Source of the DNA: an uncultured Gemmatimonadales bacterium
GTDB lineage: Bacteria > Gemmatimonadota > Gemmatimonadetes > Gemmatimonadales > GWC2-71-9
DNA: 64,000 nt
Reading direction: 5' to 3'
Assembly (NCBI GenBank): GCA_963844035.1
Contig: CAWJMT010000004.1
Coordinates: 288,001-352,000 of the forward strand
Shown: piece after piece, positions 32,837-50,223 of the stretch
Layout: each line of letters begins with the position of its first letter
How positions within the stretch are numbered: position 1 is the stretch's first letter
Made by a program: the position numbers and the translations under genes
Notes under the pieces: model-generated
What the model was told of the DNA's origin: nothing
Seen by the model: the letters and a program-made list of their open reading frames with translations, nothing else
The model's database searches: none

Positions 32837-33881
32837 TCAGCCCCCGAAATACCCCTTCGCCACCAGCAGCTCCGCGTTCAGGATCGCCGCGCCCGCCGCG
32901 CCGCGGACGGTGTTGTGGCTCAGCGCCACGAAACGGTACCCGAGGACCTGGTCGGGGAAGATCCGCCCGACCGTGACGCTCATCCCGCCGCCGGCATCGC
33001 GGTCGAGCCGTGGCTGGGGCCGGTCCGGCTCGTCGCGCACGATGATCGGCCGCTCGGGAGCGGTGTGGAGCTTGAGCGCTTGCGGCACCCCGCTGAACTC
33101 TGCGAGCGCCGCGCGCACCCCGGCAACATCGGTCTTACGCCCGAGCTTCACTCTGATCGCGGCGATGTGCCCGTCCTGGACGTTCACGCGGTGGACCTGC
33201 GCACTCACGGGAAACGGCGCCGAGGCAATGGTGCCGTCTCGGACGGTCCCGAGAATCTTCTGTGTTTCGCGCTCGATTTTTTCCTCTTCGCTACCGATAT
33301 AGGGCACCACATTGTCGGTAATGTCCATCGCGGACACGCCGGGGTATCCCGCCCCGGAGATGGCCTGGAGCGTGGTCACCACGCAGGCTTCGACGCCGAA
33401 CTTCTGGTGCAGCGGCGCAAGCGCGAGCGCAATCCCGATCGCCGAGCAATTGGGATTCGTGACGATGAAGCCTTTTCCCTTGCGACCGTTCAAGATGCCC
33501 TAAGTGGTCGGGGTTCACCTCGGGGACCAGCAGCGGCACGCCTGCGTCCATGCGATACGACGAGGTGTTGCTGATCACCGGGTAGCCGGCCTCGGCGAAA
33601 CACCCTTCCATTTCCCGTCCGACCTCCGACGGCACGCTCGAGAAGATCACATCGCAGTCGAGCGGCGGCCGCGGCGGATGTACGGGCAGCGCGCGCGCGC
33701 TCTTGGGCATGTCCCCCGGGAGGCGCCACACACACGCTTCGGCGTAGGTCTTCCCCACCGACCGATCGGAGGCGGCGAGCGCCGTGACCACGAACTGCGG
33801 ATGCCCCTCGAGCATCTGCACGAAGCGCTGGCCCACGGTTCCTGTGGCCCCAAGGATGCCGACCCGAATCTTCTTGGTCAT
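32837..33881 (-). CDS. asd: Aspartate-semialdehyde dehydrogenase (frameshift near 33490)
   Basis: GATGTVGQ, VPEVNPDH, TNPNCS, QAISGAG, HNTVRGAAG. Confidence 0.95.
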
Positions 33882-36772: not shown

Positions 36773-37485
36773 GCTCCCGCCTTTCGTTCCGCTTCGAGAA
36801 TCTCGTCGAGCACATCCTCGAAGGCGTAAACGCCACGCCGGCCCACAATCCAGCGCGCCGCCGCGAGCGCGCCGGCCGCGAACCCCTCCCGGGACCGGGC
36901 GGTGTGGATGAGCGTCAGCTGGTCCGCGGCCGAGTCGAACCCGACCCGGTGCACGCCCGGGATGTGCCCGGCGCGCGTGCTGGCGATCGGGACGTCGCGC
37001 CCCAACCGGCGAGCCAGCACCGAATGAAGATGGAGCGCCGTTCCCGACGGCGCATCTTTCTTGTTCGCGTGGTGCGCCTCTTCGATGAACGCCTCGTAGG
37101 ACATGACGCCGCGGAACAACTCGGCGGCGCGTTCCACGAGCCGGTAGAAGACGTGCACCCCGATCGAGAAGTTCGCCCCGACCACCATCGCCCCGCCCCC
37201 CTGTTCGACGAGGCGCCGGGCTTCTGCTTCCTTCGCCTGCCAGCCGGTCGTCCCCTCGACGAGCGGCACCCCCGCCGCGACGCAGGCAGCCACATGCGGC
37301 AACACCGCTTCGGGTGCGGAGAAATCGATGGCGGCGTCGTGACCTCGTAGGACTGCAGCAAGCTTGTCGGGCGCGAGGCTCGCGTCGTTGATGTTCAGGA
37401 CCACGCCGACCGTGTGCCCCGACGCGCGCGCGGCCGCCATCACGACGCTGCCCATCCGGCCGTCGCCCAGGAATGCAAGCTTCAT
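36769..37485 (-). CDS. dapB: 4-hydroxy-tetrahydrodipicolinate reductase
   Basis: GRMG, IDFS, GTTG, NFSIGV, EAHHANKKDAPSGTA, SREGFAAGA. Confidence 0.95.
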   Translation of the reverse strand: MKLAFLGDGRMGSVVMAAARASGHTVGVVLNINDASLAPDKLAAVLRGHDAAIDFSAPEAVLPHVAACVAAGVPLVEGTTGWQAKEAEARRLVEQGGGAMVVGANFSIGVHVFYRLVERAAELFRGVMSYEAFIEEAHHANKKDAPSGTALHLHSVLARRLGRDVPIASTRAGHIPGVHRVGFDSAADQLTLIHTARSREGFAAGALAAARWIVGRRGVYAFEDVLDEILEAERKAGA

Positions 37486-39905
37486 GACCGTCCTCCGCCG
37501 ACCGTAGCGGGCGTTTCGAGCAGGCGCCGCGCGAGCTGGACGTATAGGTCCACCCCGCGCTCCAGCTCGGATTTCGCGATCCGCTCCCGCGGCATGTGAG
37601 CGTCGTGGATCGAGCCCGGGCCGAACAGCAGCGGCTTGCCCCAGTTCGACAGGTGGGGGACGTCGGTGGTGAATCCGACGACGCACTGTTCGAACCCCGG
37701 GACCGCGGTGAGGCGGATCGGCGGCGTGTGGCTCAGATACTCGACGCTCGCCCGTCCCGCCACCGCACGCTCGAGCAGCTCGCGCACCGGAGCCGGGTCG
37801 CCGATCAGCCGGATGTGCAGGTCGGCACGGGCGTCCGGGGCGATCACGTTCGACCCCGCGCCGCCGGCCAGGACGCCGATGTTACACGTCGTCTCACCGA
37901 AATAGCTGTCCTTGGGCCAGGCGATCGCGCGTACATCCGCGAGCACGTCGAGCAGCGTGTGGATCGCCGAGCGACCCCGCTCGGGATACGCCGAATGGCC
38001 GCCCGTCCCCTCGGTCCGCAGCACCACGCGAATCGAGCCCTTGCTGCCCACGGCAAGCTTGTTCTCCGTCGGCTCGCCCACGACCATCCAGCGACAGTCC
38101 CGCGCGGCCGGATGTTTGTTCGCCGCCCGCGCCCCCAGGGCGCCTTTCTCCTCGTCCACAACGTACAGCAGCCCAATGTCGCGCACGCCTTCAGCCCGCA
38201 GCCGCTCGGCGGCTGCAACCTGGGCCGCGATGATGCCCTTTGTGTCGCACGCACCCCGTCCATAGAGAAACTCGTCATCCTCTGAGGACGGGAAGAAGGG
38301 CGGAACGGTGTCGAGGTGCGTGCAGAATACCAGACGTGCGGGGACATCGGTCGTAGCAAACAGACCCGGGCGCCCCGGCACATCTTCCAGCAGCTCGACG
38401 CGGTACCCCAGCTCCATCAGATAGGACCGCAGTGCGCGGGCGACCGCGTCTTCGTCACCCGTGACCGATGGGATATCGATCAGGTGCCGCGCCAGCTCCA
38501 GCGGCTCGACTGGCTCACCGCGCCGCGGGGCGCGCAGCGATGCCGGATCCGGCGCCACCCGATCGAGCAGCGCGGCGTGCAGCCGCGCTACAGTCTCGCG
38601 CGCCTGCTCCTCTTCCACCACGAATGTGAGGTTCACCCGCGAGGCCCCCTGCGAGATGAGCGACACGTTGATGTCGCGGATCGTCTCGAATACACGGGCC
38701 GCGATCCCCGGCGTCGTGCGCAGCCCCTCGCCCACCACACAAATGATGGCGCGGCCCGGCTCTACGCGCACGTCGCCCATCGCCTTCAGCTCCTCCACCA
38801 CCGCGGGCAGCTGCTCGGCGCCATCCTCCACGGTGAGTGAGAGACTCACCTCGGAGGTCGTGACCACGTCCACCGGCATCTTGTGGCGGTCGAACACCTC
38901 GAACAGCGTGCGCAGGAAGCCGTACGCACCGAGCATCCGCTCCGAGGTGATCTGCAGCACCGTGATCCCCCCCTTGTGAGCGATCGATTTCACCGCTCCG
39001 GGCCAGAACGCCGCTTCGGTCGCGACCAGGGTGCCCGGATCATCGGGCGCGCGCGAGTTCACGATGCGCACGGGGATCTTGCGGGCGAGGGCCGGCCGGA
39101 TGGTTTTCGGGTGCAGCACCTTCGCCCCGAAATAGGCGAGCTCGGACGCCTCGGCGTAGGATAGGCTGGGAATGGTGCGGGCCCCGGGCACGATGCGTGG
39201 GTCGGCCGTCAGGACGCCCGATACGTCGGTCCAGATCTGGATTTCAGCCGCGTTCAGCGCCGCGCCGACCAGCGCCGCCGTATAGTCGGAGCCGCCGCGC
39301 CCCAACGTGGTGGTCACGCCACTGGTGGTGGCGGCTACATACCCTCCCAGCACCGGGATACGTCCGGCCGCGAGCAGCGGCTCGAGCTCGGCGCGGCAGC
39401 GTCGCTCCGTCTCTCCGCCGTCGGGCGTGGCGCGGCCGTAGGCGTCGTCAGTGACGATGCAGCGACGGGCGTCCACTCCCGTGGCCGGGAGCCCGGCGGC
39501 GGCCAGGCCCTCGGCCAGCAGCGTCGAGGAGAGGCGCTCCCCGTACGACAGGATCTCGTCGCGGAGCCGGGGGAGCTGCGCCGGGTCCCGCTCCGCGGCT
39601 TCGAGCAGGCGGGCGATATCGTCTCGCGCATGGGCAAGATCTTCGTTGAACCGTGCCGCGGCCGCGGCGCCGAGCAGCCGGCGGGCGATCTCGCGGTGCC
39701 GCTCGAAGTGCGGCTCGAGACCCTGCACCGTTCCAGCGTCCACGCTCGCGACCAGCGCATCCGTCATGCGAGCGAGCGCCGACACCACCACCACCGGGTG
39801 CGCTGCCACGCGGGCGCGCAGGATCTCCGTCACGCGCGCGAATGCAGCCACGTCCTCGACGGATGTGCCGCCGAACTTGAGGACGGTACACGAATCCCCC
39901 ATCAC
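37482..39905 (-). CDS. lysC: Aspartokinase (two ACT domains) fused to an M20 deacylase (DapE/ArgE-like)
   Basis: KFGGTSV, TLGRGGSD, AKVLHP; then IPSVTGDE, THLDTVPP, GRGACDTKG, DEE, GEPT, GHSAYP, FGPGSIHDAH in one 807-aa ORF. Confidence 0.9.
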   Translation of the reverse strand: MMGDSCTVLKFGGTSVEDVAAFARVTEILRARVAAHPVVVVSALARMTDALVASVDAGTVQGLEPHFERHREIARRLLGAAAAARFNEDLAHARDDIARLLEAAERDPAQLPRLRDEILSYGERLSSTLLAEGLAAAGLPATGVDARRCIVTDDAYGRATPDGGETERRCRAELEPLLAAGRIPVLGGYVAATTSGVTTTLGRGGSDYTAALVGAALNAAEIQIWTDVSGVLTADPRIVPGARTIPSLSYAEASELAYFGAKVLHPKTIRPALARKIPVRIVNSRAPDDPGTLVATEAAFWPGAVKSIAHKGGITVLQITSERMLGAYGFLRTLFEVFDRHKMPVDVVTTSEVSLSLTVEDGAEQLPAVVEELKAMGDVRVEPGRAIICVVGEGLRTTPGIAARVFETIRDINVSLISQGASRVNLTFVVEEEQARETVARLHAALLDRVAPDPASLRAPRRGEPVEPLELARHLIDIPSVTGDEDAVARALRSYLMELGYRVELLEDVPGRPGLFATTDVPARLVFCTHLDTVPPFFPSSEDDEFLYGRGACDTKGIIAAQVAAAERLRAEGVRDIGLLYVVDEEKGALGARAANKHPAARDCRWMVVGEPTENKLAVGSKGSIRVVLRTEGTGGHSAYPERGRSAIHTLLDVLADVRAIAWPKDSYFGETTCNIGVLAGGAGSNVIAPDARADLHIRLIGDPAPVRELLERAVAGRASVEYLSHTPPIRLTAVPGFEQCVVGFTTDVPHLSNWGKPLLFGPGSIHDAHMPRERIAKSELERGVDLYVQLARRLLETPATVGGGRS

Positions 39906-40197: not shown

Positions 40198-40226
40198 TTG
40201 ACACCCTCAGTGAGACATGGTAGCGT
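40198..40226 (+). promoter_or_regulatory. sigma70 promoter of the cys leader
   Basis: TTGACA-N17-TAGCGT with extended TGn; ATG follows after 7 nt. Confidence 0.75.
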
Positions 40227-40233
40227 ACGAGCC

Positions 40234-40335
40234 ATGCGACTGTGCTGCAACGCAATTGGCTGTTGTTGTCCCTCCCAGGGGAGCGGGCGTGATTGCGGTG
40301 CACAGTCCGGAGGTCATCGGACGCAGGACAGGTAG
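40234..40335 (+). CDS. Cys-rich leader peptide MRLCCNAIGCCCPSQGSGRDCGAQSGGHRTQDR
   Basis: 6 Cys in 33 aa (CC and CCC runs); starts at the predicted TSS; precedes a terminator and cysH. Confidence 0.85.
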   Translation: MRLCCNAIGCCCPSQGSGRDCGAQSGGHRTQDR

Positions 40336-40354
40336 CTTCTCGCGAGTGCACGCG

Positions 40355-40399
40355 AATCGGGCCCGATCCCCTCGAAGGGGAACGGGCCCGATGATTTTT
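40355..40399 (+). terminator. Attenuator terminator upstream of cysH
   Basis: atcgggcccgatcccct-cga-aggggaacgggcccgat followed by gaTTTTT. Confidence 0.85.
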
Positions 40400-40449
40400 G
40401 GGGTGGCCCGAGTGGTAACAAGCAGGCGCACACATACGAGGTGGTCCTA

Positions 40450-41173
40450 GTGAACGAGGGGACGCAGGCAGATGGAGGGTCGGTGCTGTCTCCCGACGCG
40501 GTGCACAAGCACGCGGCGGAGCTGCGCGGCGCCTCGCCGGAAGCGATCCTCCGCTGGACGCTGGCCACCTTCCCGCAGCGCAGCGCGCTGACCGTCAGCT
40601 TCGGCGGGGGCGGCCTGGTCCTCGCCCACTTGCTGAGCCAGATCGACCGTACCGTGCCGGTTCTGTTTCTCGATACGGGGTTTCATTTTCCCGAGACGCT
40701 CACGTTCAAGGACTCGTTTGTCGCGCGGTACGGGCTGAATCTCGTCGAGCTGCACCCCGCCACCGACCCGGGCCCCCTGTACCAGACCGACCCCGACCGC
40801 TGCTGCTCGATTCGCAAGGTCGAGCCGTTGGAGCGCGCGCTGGTCGAAGGAGCGTACCAGAGCTGGATCAGCGCGGTTCGCAGCGACCAGAGTCAGACGC
40901 GCACCGAGATCGACGTGTTGGAGTACCATCGCATCAAGGACCACGCGGTCGTGAAGGTGTACCCGCTCGCGGGGTGGTCCCGCGATCAGGTAAAGGCGCT
41001 ACCTGCGCGAGCATGAGGTGCCGTATCACCCCCTCATGGATCAGGGCTTCACCAGCATCGGCTGCTGGCCGTGCACCCGCGCCACGCGCCCCGGCGAGCC
41101 CGAGCGCGCCGGCCGCTGGAGCGGCCTGGGAAAGACGGAATGCGGCATCCACACGTTCACAGAGAAGGTATGA
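40450..41173 (+). CDS. cysH: APS/PAPS reductase (frameshift near 40998)
   Basis: [41 protein letters not shown] and CxxC indicate the Fe-S APS-reductase type. Confidence 0.92.
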
Positions 41174-41847
41174 GCTTCTACCCGGTATTCTTGAATCTCA
41201 ACGGCCGGCGCGTCGTGGTTGTCGGTGGCGGCGCGGTCGCCGAGCAGAAGGTCGTTGGACTGCTGGACGCCGGCGCACGCGTCACGGTCGTGAGCCCCGT
41301 GTTGACCTGGAAGCTCGAAGACCTGGCTTCGACCAGCGCGATCACAGTCCAGCGTCGCTCGTACGAGCGCGGCGACCTGGAGGGCGCATTCATCGCGATC
41401 GCCGCGACCGACGACCGCAGCGCCAACGCGGCCGTATGGGATGAAGCGGAGCAGCGCGGGATTCTCCTCAATGCCGTGGACGATCTGCCCCACTGCAGCT
41501 TCATCGCGCCGGCGGTGCACCGCGAAGGAGACATCGCCGTCGCCATCTCGACCGGGGGGAAAAGCCCCGCGTTCGCGGTGCGGTTGCGTGAGCGGATCGC
41601 CGCCCTGATCGGCCGTGAAGAGGCGGCGTTCCTCGATCTGCTGGGAGAGCTGCGGCCACACGTTGCCGCCCGCGTTCCCGATTTCAAGGTGCGCACCAAG
41701 CTGTGGTACCAGATCGTCGATTCCGACGTCGTCGAATACGTGCGCCGCGGCGACCTGGTCGGTGCGCGCAAGCGGATCGACGACCTCATCGACGAAACGT
41801 CGCCACGTCCCCCCTCGCCGCGGAGCGGAGAGGGGGCCAGGGGGTGA
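41170..41847 (+). CDS. cysG: Precorrin-2 dehydrogenase/sirohydrochlorin ferrochelatase (CysG N-terminal module)
   Basis: [28 protein letters not shown]. Confidence 0.9.
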
Positions 41848-41850
41848 GGG
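41809..41850. repeat. Short palindromic element CCCCTC..GAGGGGG..GGGGTGAGGG at the cysG/cobA junction
   Basis: ccccctcgccg-cggag-cggagaggggg hairpin followed by ccagggggtgaggg; encodes [12 protein letters not shown]. Confidence 0.5.
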
Positions 41851-42641
41851 CGGGCGCGGGTAAGGTTTTCCTCGTGGGCGCGGGCCCCGGCGATCCCGGA
41901 CTCATCACGGTGCGCGGCATGGCCGCACTCCGGCGCGCCGACGTCATCGTCTACGACCGGCTGGTGCATCCGCATCTCGTGGAGCGCGCGGCGCCCTGGG
42001 CGGAGCGAATCTTCGTCGGTAAACGCGCCGAGGGCCGGTCGATCGAGCAGGACAAGACAAATGAGCTGCTGGTCTCCCTCGCCCAGAGCGGTCAGGTGGT
42101 CGTGCGACTCAAGGGCGGCGACCCGTTCGTGTTCGGCCGTGGCGCTGAGGAGTGCGAGACGCTACGGCACGCCGGTATTCCGTTCGAGGTGATCCCCGGT
42201 GTCAGCTCGGCTCTGGCGGCTCCCGCGGCCGCGGGGATCCCGGTGACCCACCGGCGCTTTGCGTCGGCGTTCGCAGTTGCCGCCGGGCACGAGTGCGAAG
42301 GGGAGTCGGATCTCGATTGGGATGCGCTGGCCCGGATCCCGACGTTGGTGTTCTTGATGGGGCTGCGGGGCCTGTCCACCATTACCGGGCGGCTGCTCGC
42401 GCATGGCGCTCGCCCCGAGACACCGGCTGCGATCATCGCCAGCGCCACACTTCCAGAAGAGCGCACCGTGGTCGGAACGCTGGCGACGATCGCCGAGCTC
42501 GCGCAGGCCGCCGGAATCACCGCGCCTGCGACACTCGTCGTCGGTGAAGTCGTCCGGGTGCGCGACCTGTTGACCGCGCTGGGTGACGGTACGCTGCCCG
42601 CCGAATCGCCCGCCAATACCGCCGTTCTCATCGAAGCCTAA
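41844..42641 (+). CDS. cobA: Uroporphyrinogen-III C-methyltransferase
   Basis: VGAGPGDPGLIT, YDRLV, RLKGGDPFVFGRG, PGVSS, IPVTHR. Confidence 0.93.
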   Translation: MRAGAGKVFLVGAGPGDPGLITVRGMAALRRADVIVYDRLVHPHLVERAAPWAERIFVGKRAEGRSIEQDKTNELLVSLAQSGQVVVRLKGGDPFVFGRGAEECETLRHAGIPFEVIPGVSSALAAPAAAGIPVTHRRFASAFAVAAGHECEGESDLDWDALARIPTLVFLMGLRGLSTITGRLLAHGARPETPAAIIASATLPEERTVVGTLATIAELAQAAGITAPATLVVGEVVRVRDLLTALGDGTLPAESPANTAVLIEA

Positions 42642-42653
42642 AGGGACAGAATC

Positions 42654-44819
42654 ATGACCGTGACCCACGCCGACCCCGCTACTCAGCCGCTCCCGGAAGG
42701 GATCCTCCAGGAGCTCGCGGAGCTTGAAGAGCACATCAAGGAATTCCGCCGTGGCGAGATCGGCGAAGTGAAAATGCAAAAGATCCGCCTGCAGTTCGGG
42801 GTGTACGCCCAGCGCCAGGACGGCGTCCAGATGGTGCGGATCAAGATTCCCGGCGCGGTTCTCTCGGGAGACCAGTTGACCTGTCTCGCCGATGCCGCCG
42901 AGCGGTTTGGGAGCGCGTTCGTGCACTTCACCACGCGCGAGGACGCCCAGATCTACTACATGATCCTCGAAAGCGCGCCGGAGCTGATGCGCTTCCTCGC
43001 CCGCTCGGGAATCACGACCCGCGAGGCGTGCGGCAACACGGTCCGCAACATCACGGCGTGCTACCGCGCCGGGACGTCCCCCACCGAGGCGTTCGACGTC
43101 GCGCCCTATGCGCATGCGCTGTTTCGCTACCTGGTCCGCAACGACCACAACCAGGTGATGGGGCGGAAGTTCAAGATCACGTTCGAGGGATGTACCGAGG
43201 ACCATTCCGGCGTGCGGATCCACGACATCGGCTGGCTCGCCCGCGTGCGGCATGAGAACGGGAAGGAGCGTCGCGGGTTCGCGGTGCACGTGGGCGGCGG
43301 GCTGGGCGGCGCGCCCATGCTCTCGAACGTCTACAGCGAGTTCCTGCCGGTCGAGGAGATGTACAACTTCGCGTCCGCCATCCTGCGTCTGTTCGATCGC
43401 TACGGCGAGCGCAAGTCGCGCATGAAGGCGCGCATGAAGTTCCTGATCCAGGCGATGGGGTGGGAGAAGTTCAAGGAGGCGCTCGACAAGGAGCGGGAGA
43501 TCGTCGGCCCGATTCCCTTCCCGCCGGAAGACCTGATCGACGTGCATCAGCCGATCCCCGCGCCGCGCCGCGGACTTCCGGTCCACGATGACCGCCCGGC
43601 CTACAAGCGGTGGCACAGCGACTCGGTGGTGGCACACAAGATCCCGGGATTGCGCGGCGTGAACGTGCGCCTGCGGCTGGGAGACATCGAGAGCGAGCCG
43701 CTGCGCAAGCTGGCCGACGTCGTACGGCGTTATTCCGCCAACGAGGCGCGCGTCTCGATCGAGCAGAACCTGTACCTCCCCTGGGTGCGCGAGGAGGAGC
43801 TGCCCGCGCTGTACGACGCCCTGGTCGCGATCGGACTCGGCGACGCCGGCGCCGAGACCGTGGAAGACATCACGACCTGCCCCGCGGCCGACACCTGCCG
43901 CCTCGGCATCGCCTCAGCGAAAGGCCTCGGCTCGGCGCTTTCCGCGGCGCTCGAAAACGAGCTCGCCGAGTACGCCGACGTCGCCCGCGACGTGAAGATC
44001 AAGATCTCCGGGCTGCCCCAACGGCTGCGCGCAGCACGCCGTCGCCGACATCGGTTTCCACAGCGCCGCCCAGACCGAGGATGGCCGTACCGTCCCCTCG
44101 TATCTGCTGTTCGTGGGTGGCAAGGCCGATCTGCAGACTTCCCGGCTCGGCGGTGTGATCGGGCGATTCCCCGCCAAGAACGGGGTCAAGGTGCTCGAGG
44201 CGCTGCTTTCCACCTATCAGCGCGAGCGGCAGCCGGGCGAGGACTTCGGCACGTGCGCCGAGCGGATTGGCGAGGCAAAGCTCAAGGAAATCCTCGAGCC
44301 GCTGCGCGCTGTGCGCTCGTTCGATGAGGATCCCTCGTTCTATCAGGATTGGGGACATGCGAACGAAAAGTTCGCGGTCCGCCAGGGCGTAAAGGGCGAG
44401 TGCGCGGGAACGACCGTGGCGGAGAAGGTCCCCTCGGTCGCGGACGCGCAGGAAGCGTTCGCGCAGGCCGAGGCGTACTTCTCCCACAAGGAGTTCGAGG
44501 CGACGCTCGCCGCCGGGTACGAGGCGGCCGCAGCGGCGGCTCGTGTCCCGCTCTATCGGCGGCTGGTCGATCCCTTCACGCCCGAGCAGACGATGTGGGA
44601 GTTCGAGAACATCTTCGTGCGCTCAGGGCAGACCAACGGTCAGTGGACAGGATGTGCGCGCGGAGTTCGACGGCCTGCGGAAGGCGCGAGCCAGGCGAAA
44701 GCACGGCGCGGGCGATCCTCGATCGGGCCCGCGAGTTCGGGACGTTCTGCGCAGGGTTCAAGGCCGACCCGATCAAGTTCAAGGCGGCACCGGCTGCGGC
44801 GCAGGAGGCCGCGGACTGA
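42654..44819 (+). CDS. sir: Ferredoxin-type sulfite/nitrite reductase with C-terminal HEPN-like extension (frameshifts near 44010 and 44650-44700)
   Basis: GVYAQRQ, EACGNTVRN, RKFK, GGGLG, CPAADTC, KISG(C)PNGCAQH, GECAG. Confidence 0.88.
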
Positions 44820-48869: not shown

Positions 48870-50223
48870 CTAGTACAGGCCCAGGTACCGCTCCAGCTCC
48901 CACTCGCTCACGCGGCCGATGTACTCCTGCCACTCGCGCTGCTTGGCTTCGACGAAGCGCTCGTGGATGTGGTCGCCCAGCGCGGCGCGGACCGTGTCGT
49001 CCTTTTCCATGTACTCGAGCGCCTCGTGCAGGTCCCGGGGCAGATCGTCGATGCGGTAGTGACGCCGCTCGCGAAAGCTCATCTCGAAGATGTTCTTGTT
49101 CACCGGGTCGGGCGGCGTCAGCTTGCGCTCGATGCCGTCCAGACCGGCGGCGATCTGCACCGTGAGCGAGAGGTACGGATCGGCCGACGGGTCCGGCATC
49201 CGCAGCTCGCAGCGGGTGCCGACCTCGCGGCGCTCCGGGATGCGGATCAGCGGTGAGCGATTCCGCATCGACCAGGCGACGTGCACCGGCGCCTCGTAAC
49301 CCGGGACGAGCCGCTTGTAGCTGTTGACGAGCGGGTTGGTGACCGCGCAGAAGCCGCGCGCGTGCTTGAGGAGGCCGCCGATGTACTGCAACGCGACGGT
49401 CGACAGTTCCCACTGCGCCTTGGGATCGTAGAAACTGTTGGTGCCCTGCCGGAACAGCGAATGGCTCGTGTGCATCCCGGAGCCGGCCTGCCCGAAGATC
49501 GGCTGCGGCATGAAGGTGGCCAGGAACCCGTGGCGATACGCCACGTTGCGCACCACGAACTTGAAGGTCGCGAGGTTGTCGGCGGTCTCGAGCGCCCCGG
49601 CGTAGCGGAAGTCGATTTCATGCTGCCCGGGCGCCACTTCATGGTGGCCGCCTTCGACCTCGAACCCCATGGAGACCAGGTCGCGCACGATCACGCGCCG
49701 GATCTGCTCGGCGCGGTCCACCGGGGTCAGGTCGAAGTAGCCGCCGCTGTCGTGCGTGCGGGTGGTCGCCTTGCCGTCCGACCCGAGCTGGAAGATGTAG
49801 AACTCCGCCTCGACGCCCGACCATCACGTCGTAGCGCAGCGCCGCGGCGCGCGCGATCTGCCGTTTGAGGGTCTGGCGCGGGCACCCGGCGAACGGGGAA
49901 CCGTCGGGGTTGTAGATGTCGCACAGCAACCGCGCGACGCGGCCGCCTTCGTCGTCGTAGGGCAGGATCCGGAACGTATCGAGGTCGGGCTTCAGGACCA
50001 TGTCCGATTCTTCGATGCGGACAAATCCCTCGATCGCCGAGCCGTCGAACCGGATGTCCCCTTCGAGCGCCTTGGCGAACTGGCTCTCGGGCACCTCGAA
50101 GTTCTTGTTGATGCCGAGGATATCGGTGAACTGGAGGCGCAGGAACGCCACGCCGTGTTCCTTGCAGAGCGCGAGGATGTCGCGCTTCGAGGCTCCGGTG
50201 GTCTTCTCGGGTGTCACGGTCAT
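48870..50223 (-). CDS. glnA: Glutamine synthetase type I-alpha-like (frameshift near 49820)
   Basis: [51 protein letters not shown]. Confidence 0.9.

Follow-up and report, generated by a model that had tools for sequence, protein, structure and literature searches.

A cysteine-rich leader ORF upstream of cysH in Gemmatimonadota very probably acts as a transcription attenuator

Introduction

In an uncultured Gemmatimonadales bacterium, genes of sulfate assimilation are preceded by a promoter, a short ORF rich in cysteine codons and a terminator-like hairpin. Here we ask whether this leader controls the downstream operon in response to cysteine and, if so, at which step. Positions refer to the window, i.e. 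the whole stretch of 64,000 nucleotides that was analysed.

Results

A promoter, a cysteine-rich ORF and a predicted terminator precede cysH

On the forward strand we located a sigma-70-like promoter, supported by its sequence and its conservation, with a -35 box TTGACA at 40198-40203, a 17-nt spacer and a -10 box TAGCGT at 40221-40226. The ATG of the leader ORF, at 40234, lies 7 nt past the -10 box, and the position of the boxes places the putative transcription start near 40233, about at the ATG itself. The ORF (40234-40335) encodes 33 amino acids, six of which are Cys (codons 4, 5, 10, 11, 12 and 21, at 40243-40248, 40261-40269 and 40294-40296). Further downstream, folding and alignment predict an intrinsic terminator, composed of a hairpin (40356-40392), the dinucleotide GA and a tract of five T at 40395-40399. 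The sequence-only reading had described this promoter with its ATG 7 nt downstream, the 33-residue leader with six Cys and the long terminator ahead of the cysH ribosome-binding site, and all of these are present.

The leader RNA folds at -89.8 kcal/mol (z -3.07), which exceeds the stability of 200/200 shuffled sequences. Among 5612 ATG-initiated ORFs of 25-45 amino acids in the whole genome, 35 contain at least six Cys, and the combination of promoter, short ORF and terminator occurs at only five of the genome's 397 terminator-like sites, one of them being the cysH leader. A simple consensus scanner called neither the promoter of the cysH leader nor its terminator. The covariance model R1 found no second copy of the leader in the source genome.

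The co-oriented genes downstream of the leader, cysH, cysG (N-terminal part), cobA and the sulfite reductase gene sir, serve cysteine synthesis. The region 40438-41170 comprises cysH, encoding APS/PAPS reductase, with its ribosome-binding site; its match to PRK02090 (E 4e-40) is below the cut-off because a frameshift truncates the gene. The start of cysH, placed at 40449 by the sequence-only reading, is by its sequence likely to be GTG 40450 or GTG 40483 instead, with candidate ribosome-binding sites at 40438 and 40474, both beyond the terminator. Profiles and translations assign 41170-44780 (boundaries approximate) to cysG, cobA and sir, which are likely to form the rest of the regulated operon. 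The nearest named relatives of CysH are from Gemmatimonadales and other Gemmatimonadota, at 67, 63 and 51% identity. The genes for ATP sulfurylase and APS kinase lie on a different contig of the same genome, and cysS is likewise found on a different contig.

Both cysH and sir are frameshifted in the assembly. The extra base near 40998 that breaks cysH is missing from three independent runs (X1, X2 and X15), hence we rejected the possibility that cysH is a pseudogene; the break is likely an assembly error. Judging from translations, frameshifts at 33291-33493, 40998, 44000 and 49640-49720 seemingly split an asd-like gene, cysH, sir and a glnA-like gene, which suggests that indel errors occur throughout the assembly. 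The short leader itself is not an assembly artefact, since an independent DNA contig spans 40224-40426 with three differing letters and no gaps. Region 1, the 5'-most pairing segment described below, is 12-24 nt shorter in the source copy than in its relatives, and close strains carry a C at 40395 (three runs from three studies). Given the short region 1 and this C, the source copy may be leaky. A metatranscriptome contig (run X19, one study) covers 40265-40419 with one differing letter and extends 20 nt past the T-tract; such contigs show neither transcript ends nor strand, and we weigh this one neither for nor against attenuation.

The reading frame of the leader is conserved

Promoter, Cys leader and terminator were found before cysH in 6/6 genomes of the same genus. 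A search of metagenomes with a pattern that held region 2 only, the segment predicted to form the antiterminator, yielded 16 matches. A Cys-rich ORF was in frame in all 16, the same promoter boxes were present in 15/16, and cysH followed in 15/16; the two misses are contig ends. For further comparison, 16 distinct leader groups were reduced to 14 by dropping two near-copies of L005, and L025 lacked its promoter.

In 14/14 of these genus copies the leader ATG is the first ATG past the -10 box. The distance from the ATG to region 2 takes five values, from 47 to 71 nt, all in one frame, so that leader length varies by whole codons only. The leader frame holds 4-7 Cys codons, as opposed to 0-3 in the other two frames, and TGC and TGT are both used and interchanged. 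The leader had been called near-leaderless; this is true of the source copy, but within the family only 4/14 genus copies, the source among them, have the ATG 7 nt past the -10 box, whereas in 10/14 the distance is 19-29 nt, some with a Shine-Dalgarno-like run. The spacer between the hairpin and the cysH ribosome-binding site, which is at least 46 nt in the source copy, is not conserved.

A leader ORF of this kind could matter for its product, as a Cys-rich metal- or redox-binding microprotein or a nascent-chain sensor; the small transcript encoding it would then end at the hairpin. The presence of up to 8 Cys in 20-48 amino acids and a strong terminator directly after the ORF would fit such a role. 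Nevertheless, residues conserved within the genus fall on invariant paired bases, third positions included, the Cys run alone is common to the different clades with variable spacing, the peptide has no Pfam match, and the consensus scanner called no second promoter-like site before cysH. We therefore regard a functional peptide as very unlikely. The frame, the promoter boxes and the Cys codons favor a role of the ORF as a sensor of charged tRNA-Cys.

Three mutually exclusive helices are predicted

Three alternative pairings, in the classical layout 1:2, 2:3 and 3:4, can be drawn in the leader. The predicted protector (1:2) pairs 40246-40257 with 40291-40302, encloses a small hairpin at its apex (about 40269-40283) and is based on folding and alignment. 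The sequence-only reading had postulated a protector involving the Cys-codon region; such a helix exists, but in another register, as the conserved pairing is the one given here and not the helix of 40239-40245. The Cys codons pair with 40291-40302 and not with the Shine-Dalgarno region of cysH. The predicted antiterminator (2:3) pairs 40278-40303 with 40346-40371, according to duplex energy and conservation of pairing. Here the earlier proposal, a match of 15/18 positions between 40277-40294 and the reverse complement of the terminator 5' arm (40355-40372), was reproduced by hand, yet the helix is longer than proposed, with 40292-40303 also paired to 40346-40355. A small hairpin within the antiterminator loop (40305-40322) is conserved, with 93% of alignment cells paired. 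It is compatible with both states and possibly serves as a pause signal. The energies computed for the source copy are -25.4 kcal/mol for the protector region, -40.6 for the 2:3 duplex and -32.8 for the terminator.

We evaluated these helices in a structure alignment of 15 leaders (the 14 genus copies and L035), bearing in mind that the structure was drawn from the same sequences and that kin are not independent. Protector, inner hairpin and terminator were 88.7% paired with seven two-sided changes, a number reached by 11/500 shuffles, while slid controls were 37-47% paired. The main protector helix shows a two-sided change in 4/12 pairs, and in the terminator 91% of alignment cells are paired. 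Owing to the relatedness of the sequences and the origin of the structure, the covariation support for protector and terminator is modest. The antiterminator is 93% paired and nearly invariant, and in this 15-sequence alignment it gave no covariation signal (one pair, reached by 314/500 shuffles); the sharing of its bases with two other helices may explain this. The alignment thus bears out the Cys codons and, modestly, protector and terminator, but not covariation of the antiterminator. The T-tract is weak in some genus copies (L008, L026 and L033), and L002 has a strong one.

Ribosome position is predicted to affect the nascent RNA but, in most copies, not the full-length equilibrium

To follow the consequences of a ribosome on the leader, we folded the RNA with a simulated ribosome footprint. 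With full-length RNA at equilibrium there was no switch in 12/14 copies, as the terminator dominates wherever the ribosome sits, even on Cys 10-12; the exceptions are L003 and L004. In contrast, when the RNA ended before the terminator 3' arm, a ribosome on a Cys codon allowed the antiterminator to form in 13/14 copies (weakly in L008). In folds of this length the antiterminator was lost while the ribosome covered region 2 (codons 15-25 in the source copy). Hence, the switch predicted by the sequence-only reading is seen with nascent RNA and not at full-length equilibrium. Because the terminator wins at equilibrium even with a stalled ribosome, switching must be kinetic.

With the ribosome at the stop codon the antiterminator re-forms at equilibrium in 11/14 copies, since the loop of the antiterminator contains the stop codon, which lies past region 2. 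The source copy forms the antiterminator also with no ribosome, in folds of nascent length. Direct-path barriers, which are rough estimates, amount to 12-29 kcal/mol from protector to antiterminator (19 in the source copy) and only 2-17 kcal/mol from antiterminator to terminator (10 in the source copy). The protector is the lower-energy state of the two in 13/14 copies, the source copy being the exception. In this model, the barrier of 12-29 kcal/mol for leaving the protector could block the antiterminator kinetically while the ribosome is at the stop. A point against an attenuator is Cys codon 21: it lies inside region 2, and a ribosome stalled there would prevent antitermination.

The dominance of the terminator at equilibrium is compatible also with a different output, in which the Cys leader senses tRNA-Cys but acts on translation, as in mycobacteria, or through Rho, with the hairpin functioning in pausing or stability. 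The weak T-tracts of some genus copies point in the same direction, and the one Cys leader that has been tested acts on translation initiation, according to the available part of the report (bioRxiv 10.1101/834739). Yet the hairpin ends at least 46 nt before either candidate cysH ribosome-binding site, over a spacer that is not conserved, T-tracts are clear in most copies of the phylum, and a long helix competes specifically with the terminator 5' arm. We consider a translational or Rho-dependent output improbable, if marginally less so than a functional peptide.

A model for attenuation by charged tRNA-Cys

Taken with the conservation of Cys codons, frame, promoter boxes, protector, antiterminator and terminator, and their association with assimilatory sulfur genes, the modelling supports the view of the sequence-only reading that Cys-tRNA controls the operon by attenuation. 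We conclude that the cysH leader is very probably a classical ribosome-mediated transcription attenuator sensing charged tRNA-Cys. The model, which we infer from the ORF, the complementarities, their conservation and the link to sulfur genes, would operate as follows, from start site to regulation. Transcription would start at about the ATG and a ribosome would load at once. When Cys-tRNA is ample, the translating ribosome would pass codons 4-12 and cover region 2 while on codons 15-25; region 2 would then pair back with region 1, leaving region 3 free, so that the hairpin 40356-40392 could form and transcription would stop near 40399. When Cys-tRNA is scarce, the ribosome would stall on Cys 4/5 or 10-12, masking region 1 and freeing the RNA from 40278 onward, and the 2:3 helix would form ahead of synthesis of the terminator 3' arm. 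With this helix in place, polymerase would continue into cysH-cysG-cobA-sir.

Cys leaders are widespread before assimilatory sulfur genes

We surveyed 301 Gemmatimonadota genomes, 110 of which had PF01507 matches; the resulting 135 rows were divided by length into 47 cysH-type and 88 cysD-type. All 47 cysH-type loci were examined (8 in earlier steps and 39 here, one of which, G045, had been seen already), together with 21/88 cysD-type loci hand-picked across families. The detector required a Cys-cluster ORF and a terminator; its thresholds were chosen with examples already at hand, and related genomes do not count as independent. A Cys leader with terminator was found at 37/47 cysH-type loci (29/39 by the detector at the operon head and 8/8 of those examined earlier). 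The remaining ten comprise four with a SAM-II riboswitch, five of a distant family and one contig end. At the 21 cysD-only loci, no Cys leader was found immediately upstream of cysC or cysD; the scattered matches at six of them were at least 0.9 kb away or inside genes. On reverse strands the detector gave 7 matches in ~410 kb, one of which resembles a true second leader. A second poly-Cys leader with terminator lies on the reverse strand of one oriented locus (L156, 1976-2133), near a cysC-cysH operon.

The leader sits before whichever gene leads the operon, be it cysH, cysC, sir, tauE, osmC-cysNC, a PLP enzyme gene with ThiS and JAB genes, or a porin gene. The porin case is L122, with a porin O/P gene; in the set L122, L123 and L138, Cys leaders precede genes not recognised as sulfur genes, one of them with an AhpC-like domain. 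At another locus (L155:6646-6832) two terminator-like hairpins stand in series between a Cys leader and cysH. Distant-family cysH loci L172, L176 and L180 have no leader; in L172 and L176 cysH follows what looks by eye like an Rrf2-type regulator gene, making protein-based control possible.

In Acidobacteriota, a phylum to which we presume the loci belong from their names, a mostly leaderless Cys ORF with terminator precedes cysD in 9/19 loci (among 80 named loci); five others have no Cys leader and five no usable upstream cysD region. The covariance model R1 matched 21/151 genomes of the order, and 9/24 inspected matches carry a Cys leader, the rest being terminator-only or spurious.

Sixty divergent leaders were subjected to an automated duplex test, which in several cases (e.g. 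L089, L151, L159, L167 and L168) chose the wrong terminator or start. The region-2/terminator duplex was better than at least 95% of shuffles in 23 of them (~3 expected), and the leader's own region 2 ranked first for 9. In 22 divergent leaders bounded by hand, mean pairing of the terminator arm was 0.69 with the ribosome stalled at Cys, 0.46 at later positions, and 0.52 both at the stop and with swapped arms; 18 leaders reached 0.5, 9 fell by at least 0.3 after the Cys run, and only 3 ranked their own arm first. The antiterminator is thus well supported in the genus and in some clades, and weakly in others.

SAM-II riboswitches (RF00521) replace the Cys leader before cysH or tauE-cysDN-cysH at four loci (L157, L170, L173 and L179). 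At a fifth (L165:2462-2812), a SAM-II riboswitch with its terminator is followed by a Cys leader with its own, before osmC-cysNC-cysD-cysH. That the same genes are under SAM-II riboswitches in some relatives would agree with the cysH leader being itself a riboswitch or, with its UGU repeats, a protein-binding RNA in which the ORF is incidental, as would the high nucleotide conservation and the conserved inner hairpin. But a search of the window with Rfam models (T-box, SAM riboswitches and leader families) gave no match at gathering score, the frame is kept over five lengths with the first ATG always in the Cys frame and TGC and TGT interchanged, and sequence-unrelated leaders have in common only Cys codons and a terminator. 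An incidental ORF is, in our estimate, the least probable of the alternatives considered.

Returning to attenuation, the survey makes it reasonably probable, though with less confidence than for the cysH leader itself, that, across Gemmatimonadota and in much of Acidobacteriota, assimilatory sulfate reduction is controlled mainly by transcription attenuation that senses Cys-tRNA. This wider reading includes several sequence-unrelated leaders, leaderless and leadered starts exchanging within one genus, exchange with or stacking on a SAM-II riboswitch, and a kinetic geometry with the stop codon inside the antiterminator loop.

Other leader-type elements in the same genome

Divergent from the cysH leader, on the minus strand, a lysC-dapE gene is preceded by a conserved promoter of its own and by a leader ORF of 22-30 amino acids (40128-39998). 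The gene (37482-39905, minus) apparently joins an aspartate kinase and a DapE/ArgE-family deacylase in a single frame of 807 amino acids. Its leader contains a single Lys codon, within an RRKRxC motif; an invariant hairpin with a GAAA loop (40029-40015) overlaps this motif. The frame is kept over three lengths in 9/10 copies, the tenth having an N, and no T-tract terminator was seen at this leader. It is possibly a single-codon Lys sensor or an arrest peptide, and may be more unusual than the cysH leader.

Also on the minus strand, a promoter, a 27-amino-acid Ile-rich leader (47313-47230) and a hairpin with five T (47354-47166 altogether) precede the citramalate synthase gene, which likely constitutes an Ile attenuator. 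On another contig (G000:C5:254476-254616), a 29-amino-acid leader with many Tyr, Phe and Trp codons is followed by a terminator and then by a gene that, judging from its N-terminus, probably encodes DAHP synthase. With aromatic-codon and Ile-codon leaders in the same genome, the organism appears to use leader-peptide attenuation generally.

Comparison with known systems

Short ORFs with Cys runs are known before cys operons as the actinobacterial cys and cbs leader peptides, for which, in the available part of the source, no conserved terminator hairpins are reported and Rho is proposed (PMC1262725). The Gemmatimonadota element resembles them as a short Cys-run ORF before cys genes but, unlike them, has a predicted terminator hairpin. 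In M. smegmatis, Ms5788A is a leaderless polycysteine sORF before sulfur genes that responds to cysteine; as far as the available text goes, it acts by hiding the Shine-Dalgarno sequence, was shown not to act by termination, and had no described precedent for attenuation by a Cys uORF before that 2020 preprint (bioRxiv 10.1101/834739). The cysH leader is likewise a poly-Cys ORF before sulfur genes, predicted to be leaderless in 4/14 genus copies, but its predicted terminator lies at least 46 nt before the cysH ribosome-binding site.

Similar in design is uORFC-8-2, predicted before cysS in Rhodobacterales as a uORF whose tandem Cys codons are accompanied by stems and a U-run terminator, and for which tRNA-Cys sensing was proposed (PMC8632094, available part). 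There it is described as a prediction only, found only before cysS in Rhodobacterales and with two Cys codons, whereas the Gemmatimonadota leaders have 3-8 Cys codons, precede sulfate-assimilation operons and include an explicit predicted antiterminator. The parts available of PMC4833913 and PMC2965389 hold nothing on cysteine (in the PMC2965389 supplement, among the matches listed), and the available supplement of PMC8632094 gave no matches. In the open literature, subscription journals being outside the scope, no paper describing a Cys attenuator turned up for either Gemmatimonadota or Acidobacteriota. Within that literature, the novelty supposed by the sequence-only reading holds for the lineage, but not for the idea of a Cys uORF with an intrinsic terminator, which was predicted before cysS; as a prediction is also the only form in which we found a cysteine version of the terminator-type leader switch in print.

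The SAM-II riboswitch (RF00521), named for Alphaproteobacteria, is by contrast a ligand-binding RNA; in the four Gemmatimonadota loci it stands in the place of the Cys leader, ahead of cysH or tauE-cysDN-cysH.

Cysteine is absent from the tested set of terminator-type attenuators, and if the phylum-wide reading is true, this system would be the first in which a cysteine attenuator is shown to work through an intrinsic terminator. Dozens of variants occur naturally among the Gemmatimonadota leaders, which also allow one control comparison (cysH-type versus cysD-only), offer a directly testable cassette of 200 nt and show how sulfur uptake into biomass is likely regulated in an abundant soil phylum that has barely been studied.

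The attenuation principle itself is textbook, the classical examples being E. coli trpL and Salmonella hisL, along with thrL, leuL and pheL. The principle is described in bioRxiv 10.1101/834739 (available part). Like these attenuators, the cysH leader combines a short ORF carrying a run of end-product codons with a protector, an antiterminator and an intrinsic terminator upstream of a biosynthetic operon; the likeness is one of layout, and no sequence likeness is claimed. Unlike them, it senses Cys in our model, is predicted to be leaderless in some copies, belongs to Gemmatimonadota, and has a stop codon that follows region 2 and falls within the loop of the antiterminator.
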